64,000 nt of DNA from Mesoflavibacter profundi (GTDB lineage: Bacteria > Bacteroidota > Bacteroidia > Flavobacteriales > Flavobacteriaceae), in NCBI RefSeq assembly GCF_014764305.1, contig NZ_CP061703.1, positions 1,392,800 through 1,456,799 on the forward strand, read 5' to 3'. The notes under the pieces were generated by a model, which saw only the letters and a program-made list of their open reading frames with translations, was not told where the DNA came from and did no database searches. This document shows, in pieces, positions 5,056 through 61,148 of this stretch. The position numbers and the translations under genes are program-made. Positions within the stretch are counted from its first letter, which is position 1, and the number at the start of each line of letters is the position of its first letter.

Positions 5056-5186
5056 AATGAATTTATTAAGCGCAAAGGTAAGTAAAATGTTATCGCTACA
5101 GAAATTGAAATTTAACAGCTTATTTAGAAATTTTATTATGCATGCACAGTAAATAATTGTAGTTTTGACAATTAAACACTTTAAAT

Positions 5187-6897: not shown

Positions 6898-7068
6898 TAG
6901 TTATGGTGTTTGTAGGCAAATTTCGATTTTTTTTGCAAAAGTTTAATGCTTTTTCTGGCAAAACTTCCGCGAAAGCGAATTATTAATTTCTTTTTTTATT
7001 CTTAAAATTGAACTGAAATTAGTTTAAAATTATTGAAATTTTTAATTTTATTGAAAATTGAAATTACT

Positions 7069-35760: not shown

Positions 35761-37272
<1,512 letters not shown>

Positions 37273-37385
37273 TTATCTATTTAATATTATGGTATTTAAT
37301 TGAATGAAAACTACTTCTGTTTTCGCGTGCAAAGATAGGTGTTTTTATTTAAAATAAAAGTCCTTTTTTTCTTTTTTGAATATAA

Positions 37386-37418
37386 AAAAACACCTTAGGT
37401 TATAAGGTGTTTTTTATT
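37386..37418. terminator. Rho-independent terminator
   Basis: Hairpin aaaaaacaccttaggttataaggtgtttttt. Confidence 0.5.
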
Positions 37419-37435
37419 TAATATTATTTATTTAC

Positions 37436-38905: not shown

Positions 38906-38910
38906 TAATT

Positions 38911-41673: not shown

Positions 41674-41820
41674 TTTCTAGATTTAGTTAAATTATGCAGG
41701 CAATATACGTTTTTTAACTATATCTTAAAAAAAAGTGAAAGAAAATTATGCGTGCATAATATGTTTTTATGAAAAAAATAAGCTTCAAAATCAATTATTC
41801 TTAAAAACCAAAGGTCATTT

Positions 41821-42219
41821 TTGAATAATTTAAACTTTGAAGCTTTTCTTGAATGTATATTGATTTTTTATTCAACCGTAACGGAATGTTCTCCAACGGG
41901 ACAACACTCAGCACCTATTAAACCTATATACTCACTTAATATGTCTGTAAGTTTATCATCATCTAATCTATGGACATCAACTTACAGTCCATATCAGCAA
42001 GAACTTTTTGATATCATAAGTAAGTTTCATGAGAAAGATGGATGGAACTTTAAACAGATATCGGATTGGTTGATTGAGAACAATTATAAAACACCTAGAG
42101 GTAAGACGTTCACTCACACGCATTGTTGGAGTATTTATAAGAAGAAGAGCAAAAGCATTCAGAGGTTCAGTCGAGAGTTCGAACCTACAATAACGGATGT
42201 AAAGATTAATCAGATTTAA
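41821..42219 (+). pseudogene. Duplicated 3' fragment of the recombinase-domain ORF at 57328..57999 (last about 114 codons identical, unique 18-codon TTG-initiated N-terminus)
   Basis: The protein is identical to the C-terminus of the 223-aa ORF from VTECSPTGQ... onward. Confidence 0.6.
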
Positions 42220-42840
42220 TTAGGCAGAAAGATTAGTTGTCATGGCATTCTTTACCTTATATATGTAGTTAGGTGAGCATTCAACGATTCGACTAATCTT
42301 TCTGATTCCTATATCTTCATTAAGTAAGGTCATTATCTTTTGAACTTTTGGTTTAGATAAGAAGGTCTCAACACTTTCTGTACTACCGATTTTTCGTCCT
42401 TTATATTTACCATCTAATTTAGCACGTTCAATTCCTGCTAATGTTTTTTCTCTAGTCTGGTGGTATTGGAACTCACTAATCGAGCTTAATATATTAATAA
42501 GCAAGTTAGACATCACGCTCTCTTTACCATCAATAAGAGTAGTTATACCCTCATTTTGCGATGTGATAGGCACATTATAGCTATGGATAGTTTTAATGGT
42601 TTTAAGTATGTCCTCTAGGTCTCTTCCAAGACGGTCGATACGAAGGACTATCACTTGATTAATCTTACCGTTTGCAATATCCTCAATAAGTCGCTTACCA
42701 CTTGGACGTTCGAGGAATGGGATACGACCGCTGACACCTTTATCTTCATACACCTTCCAACCATCTTCAATTTTATCAATTTGAGTTCCGATGTTTTGAA
42801 GGTAGTGAGATGTTCTTAGGTAGTATCCAATATTGCTCAT
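42220..42840 (-). CDS. Serine recombinase, resolvase/invertase family (copy 1)
   Basis: 206 aa with a presumed Ser nucleophile in YLRTSH, the motif VLRIDRLGRD and a C-terminal HTH. It is 100% identical to the copy at 56707..57327. Confidence 0.85.
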   Translation of the reverse strand: MSNIGYYLRTSHYLQNIGTQIDKIEDGWKVYEDKGVSGRIPFLERPSGKRLIEDIANGKINQVIVLRIDRLGRDLEDILKTIKTIHSYNVPITSQNEGITTLIDGKESVMSNLLINILSSISEFQYHQTREKTLAGIERAKLDGKYKGRKIGSTESVETFLSKPKVQKIMTLLNEDIGIRKISRIVECSPNYIYKVKNAMTTNLSA

Positions 42841-42970
42841 AAATGTTATTAATTTAGGTTGTATTAAATAATAACACTAATATAGTGATAATTCCCTGAC
42901 AAGTGTATGTTTACGGCAATTATCTTATCGTGATTATGTATATTGAATAGATTAGACTTTTAAATAATAA

Positions 42971-43039
42971 CATTACAAATTTTGACCTGTGATAGAACTT
43001 TAATTAGTAATCTAAAAGTACAGGTCAAAATTTGTAATG
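42971..43039. promoter_or_regulatory. Perfect 20-bp inverted repeat (cattacaaattttgacctgt / acaggtcaaaatttgtaatg) with a 29-bp spacer, upstream of the recombinase gene; candidate recombination or operator site
   Basis: The dyad symmetry is read directly from the sequence. A mirrored copy lies at 56508..56576. Confidence 0.4.
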
Positions 43040-43182
43040 CAAGTGTCTGGTTTAACTTTTAATAAAGAGTTTTGTGACTATTATATAATTGGTATGACAT
43101 TGCCAAAATTAAAATGGATAGTTTGGTATAATGTTTATCGGGTTTTTCATATATTTAAGTGTAAATAATAACATATAAATAT

Positions 43183-43671
43183 TTGAGTAAAACAAACAAA
43201 AAAATCCTATACATTGACATGGACAATGTATTGGTAGACTTCCGTTCTGCATTCCCTTTTTTAGACAATAGTATAAAAGAGAAATATAAAGATAACATGG
43301 ATGAAATAGAGGGAATTTTTTCTCTTATGAAGCCGATGAAAGATTCAATAAATTCCTTTGAAATACTTTCAAAACATTTTGATGTATACATACTTTCCAC
43401 TAGTCCTTGGGATAACCCAACCGCAGCATCTGAAAAAGTATCATGGGTAAAAAAATATTTACCTGAATTAGCCTATAAAAGATTGATTTTATCTCATAAC
43501 AAACATTTGAACCATGGCGATTACATTATTGACGATAGGCTCGCAAATGGGGTTGACCGTTTTTCAGGCGAACATATCCATTTTGGACAAGAGAACTTCA
43601 AAGATTGGCATTCGGTCGTGAAGTATTTATTAATTAAAGAAAGAATTAATGAACCAGAGTTTGAAAAATAA
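43183..43671 (+). CDS. HAD-superfamily 5'(3')-deoxyribonucleotidase (NT5C family)
   Basis: YIDMDNVLVDF is a DxDxV HAD motif I, and size and spacing match NT5C-like nucleotidases. Confidence 0.55.
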   Translation: MSKTNKKILYIDMDNVLVDFRSAFPFLDNSIKEKYKDNMDEIEGIFSLMKPMKDSINSFEILSKHFDVYILSTSPWDNPTAASEKVSWVKKYLPELAYKRLILSHNKHLNHGDYIIDDRLANGVDRFSGEHIHFGQENFKDWHSVVKYLLIKERINEPEFEK

Positions 43672-43999
43672 GATTTTAGAAAAACAAATTTTTGAAGGAC
43701 TTACAAATTTGAATACAGGTTGGGATGCTCCGACAATAGCATATTTCTCTGAAACTGATTTTAAAACTGTTCTAGAGAGAATTGAAAAGATGAATTTCGG
43801 AATTTACGGAATAGAACCATGGACTGAGGATAATCACTATTTTGATGTAAAGTTATTTGATGATTATTCAAACAAACCAAATGACCCATTGTGGTATAAC
43901 AAAGCTTTTAGTGAGTTTAGAAAAACAGGTGAAGAACTAAAGTATTCAGCTAGTTATTATGTCCCAGAAGAGCTGTTAATTTTTGATTTAAATTTTTAA
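43649..43999 (+). CDS. Hypothetical protein (overlaps the previous gene by 23 bp)
   Basis: Only ORF-level evidence. Confidence 0.35.
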   Translation: MNQSLKNKILEKQIFEGLTNLNTGWDAPTIAYFSETDFKTVLERIEKMNFGIYGIEPWTEDNHYFDVKLFDDYSNKPNDPLWYNKAFSEFRKTGEELKYSASYYVPEELLIFDLNF

Positions 44000-44001
44000 C
44001 A

Positions 44002-45108
44002 TTATAAACTTAATGATTCAAAAAAATCATCTACGAGATATTTAATTGGCATGAGTAATTCCTTATCAGATTCCATAATCAATTTAGCAAAAGGTTTTTT
44101 ATAATCATCACCAATTTTATATAAAATAATAAGTGCTTCCAATTTAGTAAACCCAAATTTTTCTAACCTATCTTCGGTAAAATCACTTTTAATCGATAAA
44201 CTTATTTTTGCATCATCAATTACTATATTAGTTAAATCTCTTTTTTCTAACCATTCATTCTTTTTAGCTTGTTTCCAAAAGAATTCAGAAAGCAAATCTT
44301 CAATTACAGTAGAAAAAGTAATTCCCTTTTTTTTAATAGATTTTAATATAGGAGAATATTTAGCACTACATTTTCTAATAATAAATGTTTTAGATTCAGC
44401 TGAGTTTATATCGATAAGATTTCTAAGTTTTTCAATCGAATCTTTCCCTGCTTTATCATCATCAAATAAACCGATTGCTTTTAAATATTTATTATCATTT
44501 GTTTTTATGGCTAATTGTTTCCCCCAAATAAATAACTGTCTCTCAACCCAAGAAGCTCCTCCTCCAAACTTTAAAGTATCAATGAATAATAACTTCTCTT
44601 TTTTAGGGTAAAACTTAGAAATAGTAGACTTAATTATTTTCTTATCAGTTGTTCCCTCTACAAATAAGGTTTCTATTTTTTCAACATTTATTCGAGATTT
44701 AACAAGACTTATATGAAATATTAAATCTCTTAAACTTTCTTTCCATTTTTCTTCACTAGCATCATAATACCAAACATTCCAAACATTTTTTAAATCTTTT
44801 TTTAACTCAATGAACTGAGTTAAACCTATAATATACATTGGAACATTTGCCTTAGTTTTTCTTCTGTATAAACTTCTAACTAATGATTCTCCGCCTGAAT
44901 CATCAGGAGAATCATCATGTTTAATAGGCATTTTTAAGTCTGTAATTAAAAGATGAAATTCTTTTCTTTGTAAATACTCAATTGCTTCTTGAACGCAAGA
45001 TGCTTGATTTATAGATAAAGTTTCTGAAATTGTTTCTTTTATTGCATTTATAATCGATGTGATTTTTTTTAAGTCATCATCAACTATGAGTATACTTATA
45101 AAACTCAT
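44002..45108 (-). CDS. Response-regulator receiver domain fused to a Toprim-like effector domain (DtcC-like)
   Basis: An N-terminal REC (ILIVDDD ... LLITDLKMP) and a C-terminal domain with LFVEGTTDKKII ... GLFDDDKAGK, a Toprim-type E...DxD pattern. A 4-bp overlap with the upstream gene. Confidence 0.6.
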   Translation of the reverse strand: MSFISILIVDDDLKKITSIINAIKETISETLSINQASCVQEAIEYLQRKEFHLLITDLKMPIKHDDSPDDSGGESLVRSLYRRKTKANVPMYIIGLTQFIELKKDLKNVWNVWYYDASEEKWKESLRDLIFHISLVKSRINVEKIETLFVEGTTDKKIIKSTISKFYPKKEKLLFIDTLKFGGGASWVERQLFIWGKQLAIKTNDNKYLKAIGLFDDDKAGKDSIEKLRNLIDINSAESKTFIIRKCSAKYSPILKSIKKKGITFSTVIEDLLSEFFWKQAKKNEWLEKRDLTNIVIDDAKISLSIKSDFTEDRLEKFGFTKLEALIILYKIGDDYKKPFAKLIMESDKELLMPIKYLVDDFFESLSL

Positions 45109-45560
45109 TTTTTTATTTCGATTATCAATTTATCTAGTTTCTCAATCCAATTATCTTCATTAGTCTTAAAAAGAACTGCTCCAATATAAAATTCTTCAAA
45201 TTCCTTGTTATATTTTTGATTCAATTCTTTAAATGTCAATGCTCCATCATTAGTTGGAAATACATCAAACATTGTAAAGAGAATAGTAGGTAGGAATAAA
45301 TTTTTTCGTTTCATTTCTCTTAGAACTTTCTCTCCTCCAAATTGTTCATAATTTCCCCCCAAATCATTATTACCCTTCCCCCACAAAGGTATAGTCATAT
45401 CTAAAATCAGAAAATCATATTCTCTGAAATTTTTCTTTAACTCGGATACACCACTTTGATAGGATTCTTTTAAAGTAATAGAGTCACTACTAAAAAATTC
45501 TTTTAGACGAGCAATTTTAGTTATATCATCCTCAATAATTAATACTTTATTCATCTTCAT
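45105..45560 (-). CDS. Stand-alone receiver (REC) domain protein (DtcB-like)
   Basis: VLIIEDD and FLILDMTIP motifs in 151 aa with no output domain. A 14-bp overlap with the upstream kinase gene. Confidence 0.6.
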   Translation of the reverse strand: MKMNKVLIIEDDITKIARLKEFFSSDSITLKESYQSGVSELKKNFREYDFLILDMTIPLWGKGNNDLGGNYEQFGGEKVLREMKRKNLFLPTILFTMFDVFPTNDGALTFKELNQKYNKEFEEFYIGAVLFKTNEDNWIEKLDKLIIEIKK

Positions 45561-48500
45561 TTAATTTTACAAAAGGAAAAAATAATTCAACTGTTAAGTT
45601 ATTTTCGGAAAATGAAAAGTCAAACATGTCTGTTTTAGCAGAGGTTTCATAAATTAGAATCCTTTTAATTTTATCAAAACCACTTTTATCCTCTTTATTT
45701 GACCTATCAATATTGGAATGGTCGTTCCAATTTTGCTTTACTTCTTCAAGTCTTTTTCTGTTTTCAGAATAATCTTCATTTTCCTTTAAATTATTACAAA
45801 ATGCAATTTTTACATATTTATCAAGATGTAAATCGATACTAATATGAATCTTAACCTCGTTAGGTGTCAGTTTAGAATGAGAAATGATATTATTTAATAA
45901 TATATTAAAAACAAATATTGTACTTGAATAAACACCAAAAGGAGCTATATTATTTTGAATAGTAGGTTTTATGAGAAAATTAGGATTAATTCGATTAGTA
46001 AGAACAATACTGGCTTCAATTACAGTATCTATACTGAGAAGTGATGTAGAGTTTGTAGTGTTTAAATAAAACCAGTCTGATATAACCTCTAACTCTTTTT
46101 GTATTTCAGTGCCAGATTTAATTAAATTAGGTATAAGTTCACAATCTGAAGTTAAATTAAATTCTCGTACTTCTTCTATACAATTATCAATAATTTCTTG
46201 AAAATTAGTCCTAATATCACCTTTAAATTTATTTACTATTTTTTTCTGTAATGATATAAGAGTGTGCTCAACTAAATTTGTAAGCAACATATCTATAATA
46301 GTTTCAGTAGTATCAAATTTTTCTCTATTTCTTTCAAAAAAATCATATAATATATCATCATTTGTGAAAAACCCAAAAATACCATAATCCTTTTCTTTTG
46401 TCTTTTCTGTTTTAATCTGGATTAGTTTATCTACTATGAAAATAATATATTCGTCAATTTCAGATGAGAATTTCTTTAGAGCTTTTTGTACTCTAATATT
46501 TTCTACGAAATAACCACTGAGTTGTTGCGCCCATACATCATTATCCTTATATTCATTATTAAGTTTTGATGTTACCAAATTAAGTTTCTCAAAAACACTT
46601 CGGATATGGTTTTTCAAAGCACCGTGTCGAATTCTGGTGCTTAAGCAGCTGTCTAAACCATGCTCTTTACTAAATAAAAAATTCTCTCTAGATTCTAAAT
46701 AAATATTTTTAAAAGCCAAATATTCTGCGGAATTATATGAGTCAATTTTTGATGAACTAATAGATAGTAATTCATCCCAGTTTTGCTTGTTAGATGGATT
46801 AAAACTAATTAATTTTTGCGCTGATGAAGATTGTTCTATTTCTTTAAATCTTTTAAAATCATCCTTAAACTTTTTAATTTGTTTTTTTTTAAGATTGTCT
46901 ACATCAATATACAGTCTACCTTCATCTACCTCTTTTAAAACTTTTCTAACTGAATTGGTTCTTAATATCTCATTTATTTCTTTTTCATATTCGGTTTTTG
47001 AATCATTATTTAATTTTATTAGAATATTAAGAATCATTACCCTATCTTCTTCGACTTCACTAATAGAACCATAATCTGAGGAATATTTAATTGTGTCAAT
47101 GGTTGATACATTTTCAAGGAAATAAATAGTCTTACTTAAACCAAAGCGATGAACAAAAGAATCAATATCTAAATTTTTTAGGTCTTCAATATTATTTGCG
47201 AATAAAAAATCATCATAAGCTTCATATAGGTCAAACTCTTTACTGTGTAATGACATAACGATAGGAAACTCAATATGCACCTCAAAACCTTGCTTGTTTT
47301 TACACTCTTTAATTTTATTAAATAAAAGGGATGTGTTAATTTTCCTTGAACTAAAATTCTCATCAAAAAAAACAAGTCCATATAATTTTAATGCTTTGGA
47401 TAGTAAATTTTGATGAAGGTAAGAGTGGAATAATAAACTTATTTTTCTTTCTCTGTAATAATTGATTGTATCAAGTTTTGAGTCATTTTCTAACAATTCT
47501 ATTACTTCAGGATATTCCTTTTTATTATAATATCTTATAGCTTCAAAAGTTTTGTTTTGTCTATAATCTTTAGAAATTGGTTTTTTTAGATTTGTTGTTA
47601 GACCTAATTTGTATTCAGCAACTTGAAAAGAAAAATTGTTTCTAACAGGGGTAAGATTTTTTATAATACATTCTCTCGTATTATGAAAGAAAAGAAACTT
47701 GCTAGTTGTGTAGCTAGAAGAAAACAAGCCTCTTATGTAGTGTTTTTCTAAATTTGCTTCAATTTCAGATATTAAACTGAATACTTGTTTTCCAAAACTT
47801 GTATTCATATATCTTAACGCTGTAGTTAATAAGAAATCAAAATGCTCTTGTTCATCATTTTTGAAACTAAATACCTGAAATACACTAAAAAGAATTTTAT
47901 CGATAGCTCTACTGATGCCTGTTTTAATAAAATCAGACTCTAAATTAATTAAAGATTTACAATAAAATTCGTAATATTCAAATTCTAAAGGGTTTTCTTT
48001 TAACCCTTCTAACGAAAACTTAAGTGTTTTTTTAAACAACCCCTTATAGTAAGAGTTGGAACAATTAAAAAACAATTCATTATCATTGGCTGTATCGTAG
48101 TCATCCTTAATATTTAATAAATTATAAAGATTTATTAATCTACTGTCGTTATGAATAATTTTTTTAGCTTTTTTAAGAAAGACTTGATAGAACCTATCAT
48201 GCTTATTGATTTTATTAGTGTTATATATTATAGCATCAATTAAAATCAAATATTGGTCTACTATAGAAAGTGTGTTTGCTACATAGTAAACGCTTTCTAA
48301 ATTTTTATAAGAATAATCGTAATTGGGGTAATTAAAATTTTTGAACACCAAAAAATCTTCAATAACTCCATCTGCATTGATGGTGTCTATGTCATTTTGA
48401 AAATGATTTAAAAAGCTCTCAAAACTCATTTTAGATTCAACTCTTTTACTACTTGAATTAATAATGAATTCATAAAGAGGAGTTTTAATCTTAGTAAGGT

Positions 48501-48957
48501 AGTCACTTAGTAAATTCCAATTAGCTTCAGTCCCATTTATATTATCTTCCACAAATAAATGAGCCTCAATGCTCCATAGGCTAATTCCAAATTTGTCTTC
48601 TATTTCTAAAACTATTAATCTCGCTTCATCATAATTATCCAACATTAATAATGTCTCGAAATTATTTTTCAATTTCATGAAATCATTAATTTCTGAGAAA
48701 TAATCTTCTAAAATATTAGTTAGCCATCTAAACTCAATCTTTAAGTTTTGAGAAAAATTAAACGGTTCTTTCAGATGTATATCCTCAATTGAATTAAAAT
48801 AGGGGGTTTTGTGCAAAAAGTTTTTGAATAAAGAATGAAGTGAAAGAGCTTCTTTAAATTGACCTGAATTTACGTTATGCTTAATTTGGTCAATTTTCTG
48901 TGGTAGAGATGTGTCTCTATTTCTTAAAATTTCAACAATTTTTTTTCTATACTGCAT
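45547..48957 (-). CDS. Large sensor protein with C-terminal histidine-kinase-like ATPase domain (DtcA-like)
   Basis: 1136 aa. The C-terminal roughly 200 aa have a GHKL-ATPase-like pattern, and a putative H-box (LSTRIRHGALKNHI) precedes it. Confidence 0.55.
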   Translation of the reverse strand: MQYRKKIVEILRNRDTSLPQKIDQIKHNVNSGQFKEALSLHSLFKNFLHKTPYFNSIEDIHLKEPFNFSQNLKIEFRWLTNILEDYFSEINDFMKLKNNFETLLMLDNYDEARLIVLEIEDKFGISLWSIEAHLFVEDNINGTEANWNLLSDYLTKIKTPLYEFIINSSSKRVESKMSFESFLNHFQNDIDTINADGVIEDFLVFKNFNYPNYDYSYKNLESVYYVANTLSIVDQYLILIDAIIYNTNKINKHDRFYQVFLKKAKKIIHNDSRLINLYNLLNIKDDYDTANDNELFFNCSNSYYKGLFKKTLKFSLEGLKENPLEFEYYEFYCKSLINLESDFIKTGISRAIDKILFSVFQVFSFKNDEQEHFDFLLTTALRYMNTSFGKQVFSLISEIEANLEKHYIRGLFSSSYTTSKFLFFHNTRECIIKNLTPVRNNFSFQVAEYKLGLTTNLKKPISKDYRQNKTFEAIRYYNKKEYPEVIELLENDSKLDTINYYRERKISLLFHSYLHQNLLSKALKLYGLVFFDENFSSRKINTSLLFNKIKECKNKQGFEVHIEFPIVMSLHSKEFDLYEAYDDFLFANNIEDLKNLDIDSFVHRFGLSKTIYFLENVSTIDTIKYSSDYGSISEVEEDRVMILNILIKLNNDSKTEYEKEINEILRTNSVRKVLKEVDEGRLYIDVDNLKKKQIKKFKDDFKRFKEIEQSSSAQKLISFNPSNKQNWDELLSISSSKIDSYNSAEYLAFKNIYLESRENFLFSKEHGLDSCLSTRIRHGALKNHIRSVFEKLNLVTSKLNNEYKDNDVWAQQLSGYFVENIRVQKALKKFSSEIDEYIIFIVDKLIQIKTEKTKEKDYGIFGFFTNDDILYDFFERNREKFDTTETIIDMLLTNLVEHTLISLQKKIVNKFKGDIRTNFQEIIDNCIEEVREFNLTSDCELIPNLIKSGTEIQKELEVISDWFYLNTTNSTSLLSIDTVIEASIVLTNRINPNFLIKPTIQNNIAPFGVYSSTIFVFNILLNNIISHSKLTPNEVKIHISIDLHLDKYVKIAFCNNLKENEDYSENRKRLEEVKQNWNDHSNIDRSNKEDKSGFDKIKRILIYETSAKTDMFDFSFSENNLTVELFFPFVKLNEDE

Positions 48958-49358
48958 TTTCTCTATACTTATTTTAACAACATAGTTCTTTTACTTTTAT
49001 CATCCAGTTCTTTATATATTCAAAATCAATATTTTCAATATGTTTTGTTATCGTTTCCCGTCTTGATTCTTCTGGTAACTGAAAATAAGTGTCATCCTTG
49101 GCTTCTTCTCTATAGTAGCCCTCTCTTTACATAATGGTTTCAACTACTTCTTCAAATTAATATGTTGGCAGAATCCCCCAATCAAAATTCTAATGTAGTT
49201 AATGTTAACTTATTTTTTGACATAAAATATTTTAGTTTATTCACGAGTTTAACTATGTCATTTACTTAATAGAAATAACATAGCTATAAAAAAATTAAGG
49301 GAGAGTTAAAGATATAATTTATTACTTAAAAGGAGATTTTTAAGTAAAAAAATATTGG

Positions 49359-49625
49359 TTAAGGTTTTTTATCAAAAACTAACAATTCTGAAGTGGTTAA
49401 ATCAAAAGCAGTTGCTATACGTTTTAACATAGAAATCTTCATCTCTTGCCTTCCTAATTCATATTTTCTTAGGTTCTGAGCATCAATTTCGGCTTTGAAA
49501 GCAATTTCTTCAATTGATAAACCTCTTTCTTTTCTCAAAGTTCTTAGGTGTTTTCCTAGTTCAATACAAAACAAGGAAACCTCGTTTTTACGTTCTCTTT
49601 TGGTCATATTCAAATTTGAGAACAA
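49359..49625 (-). CDS. XRE-family HTH transcriptional regulator
   Basis: Classic HTH_3 sequence (LGKHLRTLRKERGLSIEEIAFKAEIDAQNLRKYELG). The start may be the internal Met at 49607. Confidence 0.7.
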   Translation of the reverse strand: MFSNLNMTKRERKNEVSLFCIELGKHLRTLRKERGLSIEEIAFKAEIDAQNLRKYELGRQEMKISMLKRIATAFDLTTSELLVFDKKP

Positions 49626-49781
49626 TTAGGTATTATCAACCAATTGCAAATAACAGGTTGTTTACAACCTTTTTTGTTTTACATTTGTAAGAAAATTACA
49701 GTCATTAAGGAAAACCGTAAAGCTTTCAGAAGCTTCTGAAATATCTTTAGTGATTTTCAAATATTAATCAATCTAAATACA

Positions 49782-50219
49782 ATGAAAAACACCCGAATTA
49801 TTTTTTATTCATCATTATTAGCAACAAGTCTATTTATATCCTCATGCTCTAGTGATGATTCTTCAGAACAAAGAACAGAACCTACTACTACACAATTAGA
49901 CCTATTAAAAGGTACATGGGAAGAAAGCAATGTTACCCATGATGGCGTTGACAGTGAAACTCAAATTATTTGCAATAATGAAAGAGAACAATATGTCTTT
50001 AATGAAGATAACTCTTTTACGGAAAGATATTTTGACGATTACTGCGATGAAGACTTTGATAATGGCGAGTTTGAATTATCTGAATCTTCTCTAACATTGA
50101 ATTTTGACGATTCATCAACAGATGTATATCAAATAGTAGAATTAAATGATACGACATTAAAAATTAGCTTTGATGATGGTGGAGTATTAGTTGAAGAAAC
50201 TTATGTTAAAATAAATTAG
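49782..50219 (+). CDS. Lipocalin-like lipoprotein
   Basis: Signal peptide with an SSC lipobox and a LKGTWEE lipocalin-like start. Confidence 0.5.
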   Translation: MKNTRIIFYSSLLATSLFISSCSSDDSSEQRTEPTTTQLDLLKGTWEESNVTHDGVDSETQIICNNEREQYVFNEDNSFTERYFDDYCDEDFDNGEFELSESSLTLNFDDSSTDVYQIVELNDTTLKISFDDGGVLVEETYVKIN

Positions 50220-50230
50220 AAGATTTAAAG

Positions 50231-51274
50231 ATGAGAAAAACAAATTTTTTAATAGTACTAGCTATACTAAATTGTATGCTTTCTTTCAGTCAAGAAACAT
50301 TCAAATTTCGTGATATAAGTAGATATAGCATTTATACCGTAAGAGAAGGAACATGGTTTGTGCCAGATTATGAAGCTGAAGTAAAAAATCCAATGTATGA
50401 TGGGTTTTATAACGATGCAGTGAAAGAGTTTATTGAGGATTATGAAGTTATTTCAAAAAAATTAAGTGAATCTGAAAATGTAAAAGGTAAAGAAGGAAGG
50501 AAACTTAGAAAGTCTCTTAGCGCTCAAAGAATTGAAATTTTAACTAAATATCAACCGTACTTTAGTGGATTAAAATCTAAATGGTCTGGGACAGTACACT
50601 TTGAAGGTATTGATATTAATAGTCCAAACTTACTAGAAGAAAGTAAAAAAGTATTAAAAGAATTAGAAGGGACTAATTTGGTGATTAAGGATTTAAACGA
50701 AAAAGACCTTTTAAACAAAGTACCTAAAAAAAGTTTAACATTCAAAAAACTTATGTATTTAGGAGACAATACAAATATTAAAGGAGAATATTTTTTAGCT
50801 GGAAAAATAAAGGTTTCATACTCTTATAATGTAAATGATGGAACTTATGAAGACCAAGTGTTAGAAGGGGACAAAAATTATTCAAGATATTCTACTTATA
50901 ATTTTTTTAAAAGTGTAGATGGTTCTGGTACTGATTTTTATAATAGCAATATTGATATATATGACCCATATGCAGTAGAAAGAAAACCTAAAAAACTTAA
51001 CGCAGATGAAAAAAAAATTGTAAGTAAGATGAAAACTTACAAAGCTGAAATAACTAGTTTATTAGATAAAATTGCTCAGTATAGAAGTAAAACGAAAGCT
51101 GCTTACGAAGCAACAAAAAAAGGACAAGCTCTTCAGAAAAAAGTACAAGCATTATATGATAATAACGATGACAAATACTATGATTTCATGCAGCTATTAG
51201 ACATGGAAACAAAAGAAGTCATGGTCGAATTTAATCAAGTTTTAAAAGGGGCTGTAATTATATTTGGCTTATAG
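50231..51274 (+). CDS. Hypothetical secreted protein
   Basis: Signal peptide and a coiled-coil C-terminus. Confidence 0.45.
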   Translation: MRKTNFLIVLAILNCMLSFSQETFKFRDISRYSIYTVREGTWFVPDYEAEVKNPMYDGFYNDAVKEFIEDYEVISKKLSESENVKGKEGRKLRKSLSAQRIEILTKYQPYFSGLKSKWSGTVHFEGIDINSPNLLEESKKVLKELEGTNLVIKDLNEKDLLNKVPKKSLTFKKLMYLGDNTNIKGEYFLAGKIKVSYSYNVNDGTYEDQVLEGDKNYSRYSTYNFFKSVDGSGTDFYNSNIDIYDPYAVERKPKKLNADEKKIVSKMKTYKAEITSLLDKIAQYRSKTKAAYEATKKGQALQKKVQALYDNNDDKYYDFMQLLDMETKEVMVEFNQVLKGAVIIFGL

Positions 51275-51298
51275 TTTTAGCATTAAATAATAGAATAA

Positions 51299-51335
51299 AA
51301 AACCACTCAGTATTTGAGTGGTTTTTCATTTTTTA
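51299..51335. terminator. Bidirectional rho-independent terminator
   Basis: Hairpin aaaaaccactcagtatttgagtggtttttcatttttt. Confidence 0.55.
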
Positions 51336-51341
51336 TTCTTC

Positions 51342-51830
51342 CTAAATATCTTCTCCCCACCAATCCACAATCGTCTTAGCTTTTATCTTATCAATAGATT
51401 CTAAATTTTCACAATTTAGTATATCATCTGCTTCTATTTGATAGCAATTCCAATATCCAGAGAAAAAATCATCCATTACCTTTAACTCAGAATGTGGTGT
51501 ATCCTTCCCATCTACTATAATAAGAACATATTTTACAGCTCCTTTATGAAATATCGTAATATGTGGAACAAATAATAATTTTCCTCTATCAAAATCTGGT
51601 TTAAACCATTCAAGATAATCTACATATTGTTCATCCCTTTCATTGTAAGGAATAATACCTTTAGATTCTTCAAAATAATAAGAGTTATCAGATTCATAAA
51701 AAGGTAAATCTTTATAAACACCATAATTTCGTTTCCAATGGAATTGTGCTATTTCCGAAGAATCACCAGACATGTCTTCTTTCCTTAATATTTTAAATAA
51801 TTTTTCTTTTGCTTTTTCTATTTTATTCAT
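51342..51830 (-). CDS. Hypothetical protein
   Basis: ORF only. Confidence 0.4.
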   Translation of the reverse strand: MNKIEKAKEKLFKILRKEDMSGDSSEIAQFHWKRNYGVYKDLPFYESDNSYYFEESKGIIPYNERDEQYVDYLEWFKPDFDRGKLLFVPHITIFHKGAVKYVLIIVDGKDTPHSELKVMDDFFSGYWNCYQIEADDILNCENLESIDKIKAKTIVDWWGEDI

Positions 51831-51834
51831 TTTT

Positions 51835-52005
51835 TTAGTTTTTTACTTTTTCTAGAAATTCCTTTAATTGACCTTGAGATATTCTTACAGTATTATCGAT
51901 TTTATAACTTTTTAAATCCCCTTTTTTTATCCAATTATCTATTGTGAATATGGATACTGAAAAATAAGACTGAAGTTCTTTACGTGTGTATAACCTTTCT
52001 TCCAT
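51835..52005 (-). CDS. Small Xis/AlpA-like HTH DNA-binding protein (56 aa; not in the supplied ORF track)
   Basis: My manual translation gives MEERLYTRKELQSYFSVSIFTIDNWIKKGDLKSYKIDNTVRISQGQLKEFLEKVKN. This is the HTH_17-type pattern common in Bacteroidota mobile elements. Confidence 0.5.
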   Translation of the reverse strand: MEERLYTRKELQSYFSVSIFTIDNWIKKGDLKSYKIDNTVRISQGQLKEFLEKVKN

Positions 52006-52198
52006 GTTTGTTTAATTTCTTATTGCTTTATACTATATATATACTTTAAGCTAATATGATTTAGTAGTAAGCAGATAAGTTTAGATATAAAAATCAATTA
52101 TTAGTGAGTACCTATATTTTCAAAATATTACTTTAGCAAGGGGTGAATTTTGGAAGTATTCATGAAAGTAATCCTTAAATTTTTACAACAATATAAAT

Positions 52199-55100
52199 AT
52201 GACACATAAGAGCATTCAATTTAAAATAACATCAGTTGAAAAAAATCAAAATGGGTATACACCTCTTGATTATGATAAAAAATACTTTACGGACTACAAT
52301 GCTAGATTCAGTATAGGTAGTAAGGATTATGGTCGTAAAGTGTTATTCTACGGAAGAACTTCTCTTAAATATAGATTTCAGTCCGAAATAGAGGAGGCTA
52401 AAAGAGCTGAACTATCCATTTTCGAACATGAAGAAAAGTCAAAAACACCTAGAAGTATAAACGAAAAGGATTATCATGTTGATGGAATATATGCACATTA
52501 CAGTACTAATGAACTTATTATTGCTTTAAATGCATTTTCTGCCCAAAATATTTCTTCCCATTATTCTATGAAAATGGAATTGAAAGACCTTAAGAAGAAA
52601 TCCATTGAACAAGGTATTGAATTTGAAATACCTTCAAGATATAATTACAAAGCTAAGGGATTAGTTATTTCAAAACGATTAATGAAAGGAGGGATAAGTA
52701 CACAGTATAATTCTATTTGTCAGGGTTCTCCATTTTTGTTTTTTGATGTAGATGTAAAGCCAGAAGAAAACCCAAGATTATATACAGATGATGGGATTCC
52801 TAATAAGTTAAATACCGAAGTGTTTGAATATTTAAAAAAAATCGCTCTAATAACAGCTAGGTCAGCAAGTGGACTTGGTATTTGTGGTGTTATATATGTT
52901 CCTAGTTTAGCGAATGAAACTGATAATAGACTTCATAAAAGTATGGGGATGGCAGTTTATGATTACATTAATAATAAACTAGACCTACCTTGTAAAATTA
53001 AATTTGATGAAGCTCAAGCTCAATTTACTCAAGGACGTTCGTTTCCTGTTCAGTTTTATAGTAACAATGACAGATATAATTGGGATAAAATAGAATTAAA
53101 TAAAGATGCTATCGAATTTAAAATTGAGTCTATTGAAGTTGATAAAGAACTAAATGAAGTTAGATATGAAAATAAAAGAGAGGAATCAACATACACATAC
53201 ACATACACTGATGATGATTATAATCAAGAATATAACAATCAACCATTAATTAAAAAATATAACATGGAACATTTCTGTTATGAAATATTCATGAACAATG
53301 GATATGAAATAACTAAAGAAGAAAATTCTCAAGGATATTCTAAACTATCAAAAGTAGGTAAGAGAAATGATTCCATATCATTATCAAGTAATAACACATT
53401 TAAATGTTTTACGAGTAGCCTAAAGGGTTTTACCCCATTTGATTTATTATCTCAACTTGAATTTAATGGCGATTCCAGAGAGGCTTATAATTATGTTAAG
53501 AGTATTTATGAAGAAAAAAATAACAAAGAAATATTTGATACAAAATCTGTTCTGAATAATTGGGAATTGCTTGATGATGAAGATAAATTTTATGACCATC
53601 CAATGGAGAGTCTTGAAAAAACTTACTCATTAGTAGAGTTAAATGAAGTCATTGGTTCAAATACAATTTTTAACTCTTTTAAAATTGACGATAATGGTAA
53701 ATTTGAAGTTGTAGATACTACTGCAAAAGATTTATTAGGAATAACAGAACGAGATATTGAATTATCTCTTCATAGAACATACAAATCCACAGGTTACGAA
53801 TATCCTGTTCTTGACATAATTAAAAATACTGATATATGCACAACTTTAAAGGTTGAGGGATTTCTAACAACAGATTTAATCATTAAGAATTGTACATCAT
53901 ATATAAACTATATATATGCAGGTTGTGGATTAGGAAAAACAACAACCTTTCTGGGTAAAAACAATCCTAATATAGATGGCTTAACGAAAGATTTTAGTGT
54001 CTTATTTATAGTACCTCGTAAAATGATGGTAGAACAACAAGCTCTAACAGCAAATGGTTTATGTCAAATAGTTGCATCTACTGGAGATAAAATAATTAAA
54101 ACTAATGATGGCATTGAATATATTCAGTCAATTGGTAACAATTCTGAAAAATTATATGATGATAAAAATAATCTTAAATCTGTAATTTTAACCTATGACC
54201 AATTCGTTCATCTTCCAAATGATTTAGTTTCTAAATATGATTACATTGTTTTTGACGAAGCTCACTTATTAACTTCAGATTCTTATAGAGAAGCAATTCC
54301 AAAATCATTTTTAAAAATTGAAGAAGTTAAAAAAGAAAACTCAAAGGCAAAATTTATTTTATTATCTGCAACTCCTAGTATAGAATTATTGACAATATCT
54401 AAATATCATAAAAATGATTTTAAACTTTTAAACATTGTTAAATCTCACAAGGAGACTCCATCTTTATACGTGCATAATTTTATTCATACCGATAGAGTAA
54501 AAAAAGATATCCAAATATTTGAGCAAGTAGTATCTGATTTAGACCAAGGAAAGAAAGTTGTAATTTTTTGTGAAAATAAAAATCAAATAAATTTACAATG
54601 GAACAAGTTAGAGGAATACTGCAATGATATGGGGATTAAGCCTCCATCAAGAAGTTATGTTTCATCAGAATCAAAAGAGCTAGACCTTTATAAAGAATTA
54701 GTAAAAAATGAAAATCTTAATGTAGATTTAATGTATAGTACCTCTGTATTAAATGTTGGTGTAAATATATCATCAGGGGTAGAGAAAGGGGTAAGTTTTA
54801 TTTTTGATTATAGTTCTAATAATGGCTATGACACAGCTATAGGGCAAATTCAATTATTATTTAGAAACCGTTCTAGATTAACTGAAATACATTGTTTCTC
54901 TAATTTGATGGATACTTCAAATCCTAATTTGTTCAAAATTAATAAACCTGCAATCAAAAACGATGAAGTCAATTCTATCTTTGACAAGAACAAATTAGAT
55001 AAAACTTATGAAAATAAAACGCTAGCAAAAAGCACTAAATATAGTGATGTGAGTTTTAGTCATTTTGAAGAAGTATCAGATTGTGCAACAGCTACATTTG

Positions 55101-56407
55101 AACTAAACGAGCAGTTAATCACAGAGCAAAAGAGATTGGATACCTTTATTAAACAAGCAGTAACTCATGACTGTAAGGTTTATTATGTTTTGAATTCAGA
55201 TACAGGAAACTCAAAATTGAAAACAGGAGATTTATCAAACGAGTTCTCATTGAATGTCATTAATGAATTACTAACTTTAGATACAGGTCAAAGAATTTAT
55301 TTTGAAAAAGGAATACAATCAACTGCTGATAAAATAGAGCCTACATTTAGTTTAGACCAGAATAGCCTACAAATAAGAGACGAAATCAGGTATTATCAAT
55401 GTGCGTATCATTCTGCTTTTCATCCATTATTACAAAAATTAAGAAGGAGTTATAACACCTTAATGTATTATTACAGGGAAAAAGATAAACTTAAAGACGT
55501 TTTCAATTTTATTATTAACACATCAAGTAAAAAAGCAATAGACAAAAGAATTGTAGATTATATTAACACTTATAAAACCATTCATGAAGATAGCATAATT
55601 ACACAAATGACAGACAGTGTTATTAGTTCAAAAGGAGATTGTATTGATAAGATAACTTTAAAAAACATCCTTAATTCAATTATACCAAATGAAATAAGCT
55701 CTCATTTTTCAAAGAATCTTTCTGATGAATTAATAAAAGGCAATTATCAAAATGTTAAGGTTATAAGTGAACCACAATTTCAACATTTTTTTAAAGAACA
55801 TATTATCAATAAAGTTAATGACTCTTTTCTAAAATTATATAAAACTTCTACCTCAAAGACAGATAGTGAAGAGTTAGAAATAGAGAGTTTGAAAATTTTA
55901 GAGAGTAATAGGAAAATTGAGTCAGATGTCAATGATTCCCCTATTTTAAGTTTTTTAGGGTTTGATATGAATATTAACTCTTTAAATAATGCAGATTTAT
56001 TTGAAAAACTTCTTAAGGAGCTTTCTGATAAATACCCTAGAGAAGGGTTGAATCAACATATATTAGTTGATTATAACATAGAAAAGGATAACTTTAATTC
56101 TAAAAAAACCATATCCATTAGTATAAACGATTTTTATTTAAAATACGATAATGAATTGTCTGTTTTTAGAGAAAAACCTGAAAATAGAAGAAGTAAATTT
56201 TGTTATGCAATTATTGACAACGGAACTGAAGAAGTGATAATTGAAAAAAGCATGAAATTATTACATTCAACGTTAAGTGAAAAAGGTATTTTATCTAAAA
56301 TGGTGAGTCCTCAAAATTACAACTTTGAAAAACTGAATAATTTTAATAAAACAGATAAGTTAAATTCTTGTAGGAATTATACGGTAATCAAAAAGATTCC
56401 TATATAA
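52199..56407 (+). CDS. Large primase-like (DxD) N-terminus fused to an SF2 DEAH-box helicase
   Basis: FFDVDVK is an AEP-primase-like motif in the N-terminal third. Walker A (AGCGLGKTT), DEAH (IVFDEAHLL) and SAT (LLSATP) helicase motifs follow. 1402 aa. Confidence 0.55.
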   Translation: MTHKSIQFKITSVEKNQNGYTPLDYDKKYFTDYNARFSIGSKDYGRKVLFYGRTSLKYRFQSEIEEAKRAELSIFEHEEKSKTPRSINEKDYHVDGIYAHYSTNELIIALNAFSAQNISSHYSMKMELKDLKKKSIEQGIEFEIPSRYNYKAKGLVISKRLMKGGISTQYNSICQGSPFLFFDVDVKPEENPRLYTDDGIPNKLNTEVFEYLKKIALITARSASGLGICGVIYVPSLANETDNRLHKSMGMAVYDYINNKLDLPCKIKFDEAQAQFTQGRSFPVQFYSNNDRYNWDKIELNKDAIEFKIESIEVDKELNEVRYENKREESTYTYTYTDDDYNQEYNNQPLIKKYNMEHFCYEIFMNNGYEITKEENSQGYSKLSKVGKRNDSISLSSNNTFKCFTSSLKGFTPFDLLSQLEFNGDSREAYNYVKSIYEEKNNKEIFDTKSVLNNWELLDDEDKFYDHPMESLEKTYSLVELNEVIGSNTIFNSFKIDDNGKFEVVDTTAKDLLGITERDIELSLHRTYKSTGYEYPVLDIIKNTDICTTLKVEGFLTTDLIIKNCTSYINYIYAGCGLGKTTTFLGKNNPNIDGLTKDFSVLFIVPRKMMVEQQALTANGLCQIVASTGDKIIKTNDGIEYIQSIGNNSEKLYDDKNNLKSVILTYDQFVHLPNDLVSKYDYIVFDEAHLLTSDSYREAIPKSFLKIEEVKKENSKAKFILLSATPSIELLTISKYHKNDFKLLNIVKSHKETPSLYVHNFIHTDRVKKDIQIFEQVVSDLDQGKKVVIFCENKNQINLQWNKLEEYCNDMGIKPPSRSYVSSESKELDLYKELVKNENLNVDLMYSTSVLNVGVNISSGVEKGVSFIFDYSSNNGYDTAIGQIQLLFRNRSRLTEIHCFSNLMDTSNPNLFKINKPAIKNDEVNSIFDKNKLDKTYENKTLAKSTKYSDVSFSHFEEVSDCATATFELNEQLITEQKRLDTFIKQAVTHDCKVYYVLNSDTGNSKLKTGDLSNEFSLNVINELLTLDTGQRIYFEKGIQSTADKIEPTFSLDQNSLQIRDEIRYYQCAYHSAFHPLLQKLRRSYNTLMYYYREKDKLKDVFNFIINTSSKKAIDKRIVDYINTYKTIHEDSIITQMTDSVISSKGDCIDKITLKNILNSIIPNEISSHFSKNLSDELIKGNYQNVKVISEPQFQHFFKEHIINKVNDSFLKLYKTSTSKTDSEELEIESLKILESNRKIESDVNDSPILSFLGFDMNINSLNNADLFEKLLKELSDKYPREGLNQHILVDYNIEKDNFNSKKTISISINDFYLKYDNELSVFREKPENRRSKFCYAIIDNGTEEVIIEKSMKLLHSTLSEKGILSKMVSPQNYNFEKLNNFNKTDKLNSCRNYTVIKKIPI

Positions 56408-56419
56408 TTTAATTAATTG

Positions 56420-57672
56420 ACCAAACTATCCATTTTAATTTTGGCAATGTCATACCAATTATATAATAGTCACAAAACTCTTTATTAAAAGTTAAACCAG
56501 ACACTTGCATTACAAATTTTGACCTGTACTTTTAGATTACTAATTAAAGTTCTATCACAGGTCAAAATTTGTAATGTTATTATTTAAAAGTCTAATCTAT
56601 TCAATATACATAATCACGATAAGATAATTGCCGTAAACATACACTTGTCAGGGAATTATCACTATATTAGTGTTATTATTTAATACAACCTAAATTAATA
56701 ACATTTATGAGCAATATTGGATACTACCTAAGAACATCTCACTACCTTCAAAACATCGGAACTCAAATTGATAAAATTGAAGATGGTTGGAAGGTGTATG
56801 AAGATAAAGGTGTCAGCGGTCGTATCCCATTCCTCGAACGTCCAAGTGGTAAGCGACTTATTGAGGATATTGCAAACGGTAAGATTAATCAAGTGATAGT
56901 CCTTCGTATCGACCGTCTTGGAAGAGACCTAGAGGACATACTTAAAACCATTAAAACTATCCATAGCTATAATGTGCCTATCACATCGCAAAATGAGGGT
57001 ATAACTACTCTTATTGATGGTAAAGAGAGCGTGATGTCTAACTTGCTTATTAATATATTAAGCTCGATTAGTGAGTTCCAATACCACCAGACTAGAGAAA
57101 AAACATTAGCAGGAATTGAACGTGCTAAATTAGATGGTAAATATAAAGGACGAAAAATCGGTAGTACAGAAAGTGTTGAGACCTTCTTATCTAAACCAAA
57201 AGTTCAAAAGATAATGACCTTACTTAATGAAGATATAGGAATCAGAAAGATTAGTCGAATCGTTGAATGCTCACCTAACTACATATATAAGGTAAAGAAT
57301 GCCATGACAACTAATCTTTCTGCCTAATTAAATCTGATTAATCTTTACATCCGTTATTGTAGGTTCGAACTCTCGACTGAACCTCTGAATGCTTTTGCTC
57401 TTCTTCTTATAAATACTCCAACAATGCGTGTGAGTGAACGTCTTACCTCTAGGTGTTTTATAATTGTTCTCAATCAACCAATCCGATATCTGTTTAAAGT
57501 TCCATCCATCTTTCTCATGAAACTTACTTATGATATCAAAAAGTTCTTGCTGATATGGACTGTAAGTTGATGTCCATAGATTAGATGATGATAAACTTAC
57601 AGACATATTAAGTGAGTATATAGGTTTAATAGGTGCTGAGTGTTGTCCCGTTGGAGAACATTCCGTTACGGT
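56420..57672. repeat. Right arm of the perfect 1253-bp inverted repeat
   Basis: See the left arm. Confidence 0.9.
56707..57327 (+). CDS. Serine recombinase, resolvase/invertase family (copy 2, identical)
   Basis: The protein sequence is identical to 42220..42840. Confidence 0.85.
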   Translation: MSNIGYYLRTSHYLQNIGTQIDKIEDGWKVYEDKGVSGRIPFLERPSGKRLIEDIANGKINQVIVLRIDRLGRDLEDILKTIKTIHSYNVPITSQNEGITTLIDGKESVMSNLLINILSSISEFQYHQTREKTLAGIERAKLDGKYKGRKIGSTESVETFLSKPKVQKIMTLLNEDIGIRKISRIVECSPNYIYKVKNAMTTNLSA

Positions 57673-57999
57673 GGAGTAGTCACGAACGGGGGTGAGTTGA
57701 TTTAACTTTTTACGACCTCGTTTAACTGGCATAATAGATATTTGGGTTCCGTTTTCGGAACCCTTTTCTTTTTCTAATACGACAGGTATTTTAAAATTAA
57801 TATTTAAAAGGTGCAGTTTATTCTCATTATCATAGTTCACTGTTATTTTATCTATTATAACCTTGAGAAACTCCTTTTTCATCTCGTCTGAAATATTGGT
57901 TTGAGTTTTGATATGTTCTGAGAAATTGTCAATCCAGTCAAACCATTTCTGTTCAGTTCCTAATTGCCTTAGTTTACTTCTCAAACCTTCAATCTTCAA
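57328..57999 (-). CDS. Recombinase-domain protein (large-serine-recombinase-like 'recombinase' motif at C-terminus); TTG start, possibly a truncated remnant
   Basis: The C-terminus (LIENNYKTPRGKTFTHTHCWSIYKK) fits the G-x-W...IL pattern of the recombinase domain. I found no ATG or GTG in the 43 in-frame codons upstream before a stop at 58129..58131. Confidence 0.45.
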   Translation of the reverse strand: MKIEGLRSKLRQLGTEQKWFDWIDNFSEHIKTQTNISDEMKKEFLKVIIDKITVNYDNENKLHLLNINFKIPVVLEKEKGSENGTQISIMPVKRGRKKLNQLTPVRDYSTVTECSPTGQHSAPIKPIYSLNMSVSLSSSNLWTSTYSPYQQELFDIISKFHEKDGWNFKQISDWLIENNYKTPRGKTFTHTHCWSIYKKKSKSIQRFSREFEPTITDVKINQI

Positions 58000-58140
58000 T
58001 TTGACTTGTTTAAGCTTTATGGCGAGGTCTTTTTTTAAAAGTTTATAAACCTGTTCAGAAGAAAACTCTTGTAATATATTCCGTGATTCGATTTCTACTA
58101 AACCTCTTTCAATAGTTGTCTTAGTTTTTTAATGTAATCT

Positions 58141-61146: not shown

Positions 61147-61148
61147 AG

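Follow-up and report, generated by a model that had tools for sequence, protein, structure and literature searches.

Introduction

Elements and prophages moved by large serine recombinases (LSRs), such as those of phiC31, Bxb1, TP901-1 and SPbeta (SprA), encode an enzyme made up of a catalytic resolvase domain, a recombinase domain and a region with zinc ribbon and coiled coil. They use short att sites with a core of a few bases and insert into the 3' end of a conserved gene, which is thereby restored. Here, we describe an element of this kind in a 64,000-nucleotide stretch of the Mesoflavibacter profundi chromosome (contig NZ_CP061703.1, positions 1,392,800 to 1,456,799; hereafter the window), where an island sits between glmS and a TonB-receptor gene. 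Unlike other LSR elements, it has its attP site inside the coding sequence of its own integrase, loses the C-terminal domain of that enzyme on integration, and carries within itself an inverted spare copy of the 3' end of the gene.

Integrases that split their own gene have been described. In the SSV-type "suicidal" tyrosine integrases of SSV1, pTN3 and pT26-2, the att site likewise lies within the integrase gene, which integration splits into inactive halves, and a 2021 review considered recombinases that on integration interrupt the gene encoding them to be exclusive to archaea, where they are tyrosine enzymes (PMC8371274). The enzyme studied here differs in being a bacterial serine recombinase, found in Bacteroidota, that loses only its C-terminal domain and has a spare cassette. 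In the literature that we searched, we found neither a bacterial serine recombinase with attP in its own gene nor a serine integrase targeting glmS.

Inverted copies of a resolvase-type gene around an invertible segment are known from plasmid pSM19035 (beta recombinase) and from the bin segment of staphylococcal pI524 and Tn552. The beta recombinase gene of pSM19035 is located inside the long repeats of the plasmid. These are, however, resolution systems of Firmicutes plasmids and transposons with defined res or six sites, whereas the present repeat is defined by an LSR att module in a chromosomal island of Bacteroidota. The Hin, Gin and Cin switches also associate a small serine recombinase bearing a C-terminal helix-turn-helix (HTH) domain with a segment between inverted repeats, but with crossover sites of 26-34 bp and a single recombinase gene, in contrast to the 1253-bp arms and two gene copies seen here. 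Lastly, the yeast 2-micron plasmid and chloroplast genomes are circles in which two inverted repeats, kept identical by recombination, separate two unique regions; the likeness concerns the circular form that we propose for the element, and there is no sequence relationship.

A 1253-bp inverted repeat begins at an attachment site in glmS

The initial annotation of the window, made from its sequence alone, had pointed to perfect 1253-bp inverted repeats around a 13.3-kb cargo, with a resolvase-type serine recombinase in each arm. A base-by-base walk showed this to be correct to the base: 41875-43127 is the exact reverse complement of 56420-57672 (1253 bp, 100%), and 13,292 bp lie between the arms. 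A repeat-finding scan of the window returned it as the one long inverted repeat, with arms at 41869-43127 and 56420-57678. A perfect repeat of 1253 bp cannot have arisen by chance. Each arm comprises, as had been proposed, the 3' end of an open reading frame (ORF; its last 115 codons), a recombinase gene of 206 aa and the 287 bp 5' of that gene. The small recombinase matched Pfam Resolvase (5e-26) and HTH_7 as well as a PHROG DNA invertase family (1.5e-33), and its closest solved full-length relative was PDB 2r0q, a chain deposited as Tn552 DNA-invertase bin3. What had been overlooked is that the "neighbouring ORF" is the 3' end of the island's own integrase gene.

Closely related strains lack the island. 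In two of them, CP049773.1 (L009; L numbers are our locus handles) and JBESAD010000009.1 (L010), the site is empty, glmS ends 195 nt before the TonB-receptor gene, and the sequence is 99.5-99.8% identical to the window on the TonB side, with homology ending at 41879. The identity between the two arms, which had been noticed to end abruptly, stops at 41875 because chromosomal DNA begins there. The left arm starts at the crossover core, beside the chromosomal flank, and is thus attL. Read in the sense of the LSR gene, attB is TTCA-ACCGT-TACCG, attP is CTCC-ACCGT-AACGG and attL is TTCA-ACCGT-AACGG, that is, the three share only the core ACCGT; attR lies outside the window and was reconstructed from L012, L107 and relatives. 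In the sense of glmS, with a slash at the edge of the core, the empty attB reads ...AAATCGGTAACGGT/TGAATAA and encodes KSVTVE-stop (end of glmS, ...ACGGTTGAATAA), the left junction reads ...CATTCCGTTACGGT/TGAATAA, and the right copy, attP, reads ...CATTCCGTTACGGT/GGAGTAG.... The predicted attR would restore glmS as ...ACGGTGGAGTAG. Within the LSR gene, which has 660 codons, attP falls at about codon 548, and its opposite strand mimics the end of glmS. The same element occupies the same site in Olleya marilimosa CAM030, where attL and attP share only GTAAC. The shared stretches of the two strains have a single dinucleotide in common, GT, which is probably where crossover takes place (41878-41879 in the window). 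The LSR is predicted to recombine these proposed att sites. A tRNA gene as the target was rejected, none being present within the window.

The integrase gene is split, and its 3' end is present twice

The 5' part of the LSR gene lies about 11 kb to the right of the repeat, beyond the window. It was found at the far end of a contig of an independent assembly of the same strain (L012, JBHTCN010000008.1), where the first 406 codons, covering the Pfam domains Resolvase (PF00239) and Recombinase (PF07508), run off through a 39-mer. Joined in frame to the window from 58090 down to 57328, this part yields an uninterrupted LSR of 660 aa. Its domains are those expected of an LSR, namely the catalytic resolvase domain at the N-terminus, the recombinase domain and the zinc-ribbon/coiled-coil region, all of which are seen in the model of a 62%-identical homologue described below. 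Within the window, the 3' end of the gene is present as an orphan fragment at attL and as a spare, promoterless copy with an uninterrupted attP (Table 1). The spare copy directly adjoins a type I restriction R gene at the latter's 3' end; in-frame stops occur just past 58128 and there is no upstream LSR part. We considered whether the spare cassette might be expressed as a separate protein, which is unlikely, as no start is conserved, a TTG start lies inside the repeat and stops lie just outside. Homologues of ~130 aa covering only the part found in the orphan fragment are common and adjoin unrelated host genes. Entries annotated in this family as "hypothetical proteins" of 130 aa and 220 aa are pieces of the integrase and do not represent genes.

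Functionally, the right arm reaches 58129, through a stretch that forms one arm of a second inverted repeat. Its partner lies beyond the window beside glmS, joined to the LSR 5' part, and the 39-mer 58091-58129 is indeed found inverted at both ends of L012. The CAM030 contig L107 ends exactly at the core, and complete arms of this second repeat are present in relatives. Using O for the crossover core, a for the DNA downstream of it and c for the 457 nt of LSR coding sequence on its upstream side, the element reads from the TonB side B'-O-a (41875-43127), loop 1, a'-O-c' (56420-58129), loop 2 (58130 to ~69261) and c-O-B(glmS). The 13.3-kb segment is therefore one of two loops of an integrative element, and both the longer right arm and the larger element had escaped the initial annotation. 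Its size would be ~27.8 kb, the part past 64000 being taken from L012.

Table 1. Features of the island within the window
Feature	Position	Strand	Remark
Chromosomal flank B'	41674-41874		former glmS/TonB-receptor intergenic DNA plus last 7 nt of glmS (TGAATAA, minus strand)
Core ACCGT common to attB, attP and attL	41875-41879	+	in last codons of glmS
Left a arm	41875-43127		attL half: last 114 LSR codons, first resolvase copy and the 287 bp upstream of it
Orphan LSR 3' end, residues 547-660 (C-terminal domain)	41875-42219	+	132-aa ORF 41821-42219 starts in chromosomal flank
Small serine recombinase copy 1, 206 aa, resolvase/invertase type	42220-42840	-	Pfam, PHROG and PDB matches
Palindrome 5' of resolvase gene	42971-43039; copy 56508-56576		20-bp perfect arms, 29-nt spacer; repeat scan
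Loop 1, 13,292 bp	43128-56419		region between a arms
NT5C	43183-43671		loop 1
Detocs-like PDC-M60 C/B/A operon	44002-48957	-	PADLOC
HTH_3 gene	49359-49625		loop 1
Lipocalin-like gene	49782-50219		loop 1
Xis-like (excisionase-like) HTH_17 gene, 56 aa	51835-52005	-	loop 1
SF2 helicase, 1402 aa	52199-56407		loop 1
Right a arm, inverted	56420-57672		belongs to intact internal attP cassette
Small serine recombinase copy 2	56707-57327	+	same as copy 1; sequence identity
Spare promoterless LSR 3' copy, residues 395-660	57328-58128	-	uninterrupted attP; open part is 223-aa ORF 57328-57999
Intact attP-like site	57650-57690	-	plus strand TCCGTTACGGTGGAGTAG, SVTVE-stop, mimics glmS 3' end; predicted crossover GT at 57668-57669, minus strand
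c arm, 457 nt, LSR codons 395-546	57673-58129		one arm of second inverted repeat
Start of loop 2 (~11.1 kb in total)	58130-64000	-	type I restriction and GmrSD genes
Type I restriction R subunit (hsdR)	58141-61146		loop 2
GmrSD gene, 655 aa	61149-63116		loop 2
GmrSD_N/DUF7834 gene, 475 aa	63104 to beyond window		loop 2

An alignment of 20 family members showed two kinds of protein. In chromosomal forms, which are 552-569 aa long, the tail is YSTVTD(F/L)A(K/R)FLG, the glmS 3' end read in antisense; the YSTV motif also occurs in forms of 650-694 aa, where a conserved C-terminal region follows. The AlphaFold model of a homologue, P0077 (62% identical), has the canonical domains, then a disordered linker at 510-558 (pLDDT <50) that contains YSTV, and then a folded domain at 558-655 (pLDDT 86-93); the C-terminal domain modeled alone reached a mean pLDDT of 83. 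Integration cuts the LSR gene in the disordered linker and takes away a folded C-terminal domain of ~100 aa. A fold search with this domain returned only non-significant matches (E of at least 0.39), which were to three-helix DNA-binding domains and to LSR recombinase domains.

Two inverted copies in an independent assembly

The independent assembly mentioned above, GCA_042665575.1, was built from short reads, and every contig that we fetched from it was 100% identical to the window. Its contigs break at the inner edge of the repeat (43127/56420) and at its outer left edge (41875). The TonB-side contig (39,201 bp) ends at window position 41913, 39 nt inside the repeat; a repeat contig of 1,111 bp matches both arms (56420-57530, and 42017-43127 inverted); the cargo contig (13,370 bp, 43089-56458) carries one 39-mer at both ends in inverted orientation; and so does the right-hand contig L012 (11,210 bp, from 58091) with its own 39-mer. 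Since both ends of a segment attach to the same end of a repeat, the segment lies between two inverted copies, and the contig graph thus forces two nested structures, arm-13.3 kb-arm and arm-11.1 kb-arm. Short reads cannot decide the orientation of either loop. Incidentally, the repeat contig stops at window position 57530 (equivalent to 42017), 142 nt before the outer end of the repeat, possibly owing to an extra branch in the assembly graph or to heterogeneity in the population.

The DNA upstream of the resolvase gene was less constant. A stretch of 127 nt (42976-43102, 56445-56571), with the 20-bp palindrome in it, is replaced in CAM030 (L002 1-390) and in two metagenome relatives (e.g., L013 7540-7898) by ~360 nt of different DNA rich in TGGCA/GCCA. 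The palindrome was a candidate crossover site for the resolvase, which we rejected as it is not conserved in these three. No hix-like site was recognized in the 1253-bp arms, and no conserved short crossover site was found there. The inner edge of the arm is marked by a conserved motif, AACTATCC(A/G)TTTTAATTTTGG. Resolvase homologues at 60-75% identity are present in other genomes (L003-L006), and none of them adjoins this LSR.

The inverted spare copy is found in most relatives

We surveyed 80 metagenome loci together with four loci fetched earlier. An inverted copy of the LSR 3' end was present in 47 of the 58 evaluable loci whose LSR is at least 44% identical, and in 1 of 18 below 44%. The recurrent layout is glmS, a truncated LSR reading into glmS and, immediately 5' of the LSR start, the spare copy of the LSR 3' part in inverted orientation. 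It is well illustrated by L015, a 1.1-Mb contig, in which glmS is followed by an opposite-strand LSR of 556 aa that overlaps the glmS end, after which the LSR C-terminus comes once more, as a divergent copy of 240 aa; the arms measure 358 nt, are 100% identical and are separated by 1323 nt, the LSR 5' part. Similar arms were found in L020/L022 (297 nt, 100%, 1413 nt between them), L024/L025 (332 nt, 98%, 1349 nt), L032 (323 nt, 100%, about 1.4 kb), L055 (341 nt, 98%, about 1.4 kb), L057 (391 nt, 96.7%, about 2.3 kb) and L058 (198 nt, 96.5%, about 9 kb). The recombinases of these elements share only 46-62% protein identity. Yet, arms that have diverged between lineages are 96.5-100% identical within each element, which indicates concerted evolution and not recent duplication. 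This allowed us to choose between the two readings that the initial annotation had given of the perfect identity: ongoing gene conversion is the better one, while a very recent duplication does not hold, the duplication being a conserved trait of the family.

A second repeat, around the cargo, was visible in three loci (L024, L026 and L063). In L024, 100 nt of it are seen before the locus ends, and the resolvase gene lies outside the arm. In L063, a perfect repeat of 2484 nt was found, of which ~1.4 kb run from the crossover through the resolvase gene; the remainder may have been added by the assembler as it extended the cargo both ways. L026 (6,564 nt) begins and ends in the same repeat; joined up, it makes a circle of 7.7 kb that contains two inverted repeats of 1.3 kb and lacks a glmS flank. 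Nearly all relatives have a resolvase gene that is convergent with the LSR 3' end, and the DNA where the inner edge of the c arm meets HsdR is 95% identical in metagenome relatives. Dozens of contigs break off after 57-127 nt of an arm, as is characteristic of a collapsed repeat. Indeed, many assemblies break inside these recombinase genes because of the repeat design of the elements.

We also scored the orientation of the LSR as seen from the glmS side: 13 contigs have it reading into glmS and 4 reading away (L034, L037, L048 and L050). In every long chromosomal contig, the LSR reads into glmS and is in the truncated form. In two metagenome contigs, L013 and L014, the HsdR-side copy is linked to that end of the cargo which carries NT5C, the reverse of the arrangement in the window, possibly through an arbitrary graph walk. 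As a side observation, L045 (Ga0206130_10006178, 4988-6955) is a full-length member of the LSR family, 46% identical, whose 5 kb of upstream DNA contain no inverted copy; it could represent a simpler form of the element.

Origin and possible role of the repeat

The repeat is probably a structural consequence of a ~27.8-kb LSR defense island that is inserted at glmS, has its att site inside the LSR gene and carries an inverted spare copy of part of that gene. The double inverted-repeat design around a self-splitting LSR is well supported. As to the function of the spare copy, we infer two candidates, restoration of the integrase by inversion, or a circle with two attP sites. The free form would be a circle in which two inverted 1.7-kb modules (c-O-a plus the resolvase gene) separate the two unique loops. 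Integration through the attP of the complete LSR gene would then produce the structure seen, and the arms would be kept identical by gene conversion between them. Recombination between arms, by host homologous recombination or by the small resolvase, could flip either loop; that the 13.3-kb segment could invert by one of these two routes had been foreseen, and our analysis agrees. Were loop 2 to flip, the LSR 5' part would again be continuous with the spare cassette and encode a full-length enzyme; the 13.3-kb loop would then invert as a side effect of the cassette's presence, and not as a dedicated gene switch. A broader and decidedly tentative proposal is that a widespread Bacteroidota family of glmS-targeting LSRs reprograms itself: integration would remove the DNA-binding-like C-terminal domain, a silent cassette would be maintained by gene conversion, rare inversion would rebuild the enzyme and so gate excision, the free circle would have two attP sites, and the cargo repeat would be a side effect.

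Several observations weigh against this interpretation. The truncated LSR retains all canonical domains and may be fully active, in which case the spare copy needs another explanation. The upstream regions of the resolvase gene in eight relatives had no dyad in common, and no recombination site of the resolvase was identified. In 11 of the 58 evaluable relatives, there was no inverted copy in the upstream DNA available. No long contig has a full-length LSR beside glmS, and all 13 full-length protein clusters come from contigs shorter than 7 kb. The four contigs in which the LSR reads away from glmS are ambiguous and no proof of flipping; we did not count them, because inverted arms longer than k leave a de Bruijn graph unable to orient what lies between them. 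The right end of the element (c-O-glmS) lies outside the window and is pieced together from the contig graph, CAM030 and relatives. Finally, the free circle is itself a deduction, which L026 fits, but L026 could also be an assembler's walk through the graph.

A different possibility was that the resolvase/invertase flips the 13.3-kb segment as a dedicated switch that changes cargo expression, as Hin, Gin and staphylococcal bin do. An identical resolvase/invertase-type gene with its upstream region in each arm, the convergence of that gene with the LSR 3' end across the family, and the linkage seen in L013 and L014 would all fit. However, that linkage may be an arbitrary graph walk, the resolvase gene of L024 is outside the arm, and the palindrome upstream of the gene is not conserved. 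The recombinase does have the HTH domain of the Hin/Gin type, but we found neither bounding sites of ~26 bp nor a switched gene or promoter: the inner edges are intergenic, without a promoter or a split gene, and where the arms lie is determined by the LSR 3' module together with the att crossover instead of short crossover sites. We therefore regard such a switch as improbable. The repeats could otherwise serve the free circle, with the recombinase flipping its halves during replication to raise copy number or change the replication mode, as in the 2-micron plasmid and pSM19035, and with the integrated form as a mere footprint. The proposed circle, with two long inverted repeats and a small serine recombinase gene in each, would suit this role; replication-type genes are present (the helicase in the window element, a primase-helicase in L024), and a title among the references of PMC2441792 reports that the pSM19035 beta recombinase inverts DNA between inversely oriented six sites. 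Yet no replication origin was identified and no replicating circle observed, the resolvase gene is outside the repeat in some relatives, and the constant make-up of the repeat (LSR 3' part plus attP) is left unexplained, which makes this role for the repeats rather unlikely too.

The initial annotation had also allowed for composite-transposon-like mobility, and had named independent insertions of a complete insertion sequence (IS) among the findings that would refute it; accessory genes flanked by two identical inverted copies do have that appearance. It is hardly credible that a composite transposon, or two separate insertions of one mobile unit around the cargo, lies behind the repeats: the unit has no transposase, no terminal inverted repeats of its own and no target-site duplication, and its only complete gene is the 206-aa resolvase. 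Moreover, one end begins mid-ORF, exactly at the att core where the LSR crossover took place in the glmS 3' end, and the right copy runs unbroken into more LSR coding DNA. No similar DNA and no related LSR or recombinase protein was found in collections of plasmids (72,556) and phages (50,697). An assembly artefact, named beforehand as one outcome that would undo the observation, or a meaningless one-off inverted duplication of recent date, could be suspected from the perfect identity, all the more so as repeats of 1.25 kb are beyond short-read assembly and the orientation in the window may be arbitrary. Against it, the independent assembly graph needs two inverted copies, the same architecture recurs in the 1.1-Mb contig and in dozens of metagenome loci of very different sequence, and the junction of the c arm with HsdR is found again in metagenome relatives. 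We thus consider an artefact or chance duplication very improbable.

The self-splitting LSR island represents a bacterial serine-recombinase family that splits its own gene, where such integrases had been described only as archaeal tyrosine recombinases (PMC8371274). The conserved spare cassette suggests how self-splitting elements escape being trapped in the chromosome, and inversion-gated excision, if true, would be how a serine recombinase of bacteria resolves the "suicidal integrase" paradox. The locus also defines an integration hot spot for defense islands in Flavobacteriia and related Bacteroidota, namely the 3' end of glmS. The natural attB/attP pairs, with their probable GT crossover, and the enzymes themselves are candidate serine integrases for tests in genome engineering.

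Cargo and transfer of the island

The first loop carries a Detocs-like operon, as had been recognized initially. PADLOC assigned its genes to PDC-M60A (2e-67), PDC-M60B (3.5e-31) and PDC-M60C (7e-17), and receiver domains were found; the three-gene operon has the large sensor protein and the two receiver-domain proteins typical of Detocs/PDC-M60. Domain searches did not identify an effector domain in the third Detocs-like protein. They supported both the NT5C nucleotidase gene and the Xis-like HTH_17 gene of the initial annotation. The supposed primase-helicase has to be renamed: in the 1402-aa protein, only SF2 helicase domains were found and no primase domain.

Loop 2 contains a complete set of type I restriction-modification genes (hsdM, hsdS and hsdR); it continues past the window with hsdS, hsdM, an HTH gene and the LSR 5' part (L012). 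Two GmrSD-family genes sit between hsdS and hsdR, and the small HTH gene is upstream (58141-64000 and L012 1377-8152). No capsid or tail genes were seen in the window. Two contigs, L063 and the one with loop 2 of CAM030, are listed as viral in IMG/VR (L107, L108).

Between the window strain and CAM030, identity is 95-99.6% in the element, while it is only 81-87% in the flanking TonB-receptor and atpD genes (L002 and L107 compared with 35761-42972 and 57665-64000). Identity that is higher in the element than in its flanks points to a recent horizontal transfer between lineages, into the same glmS site. An exception to this 95-99% identity is a stretch of ~1 kb in hsdS (L107 7054-8136 compared with L012), whose divergence suggests a swapped target-recognition domain. 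Lastly, one lineage of relatives (L016-L018, ~10721-11110) has a conserved 129-aa ORF between the LSR C-terminal fragment and the resolvase gene, and a similar ORF is also found in L024, L021 and L022.

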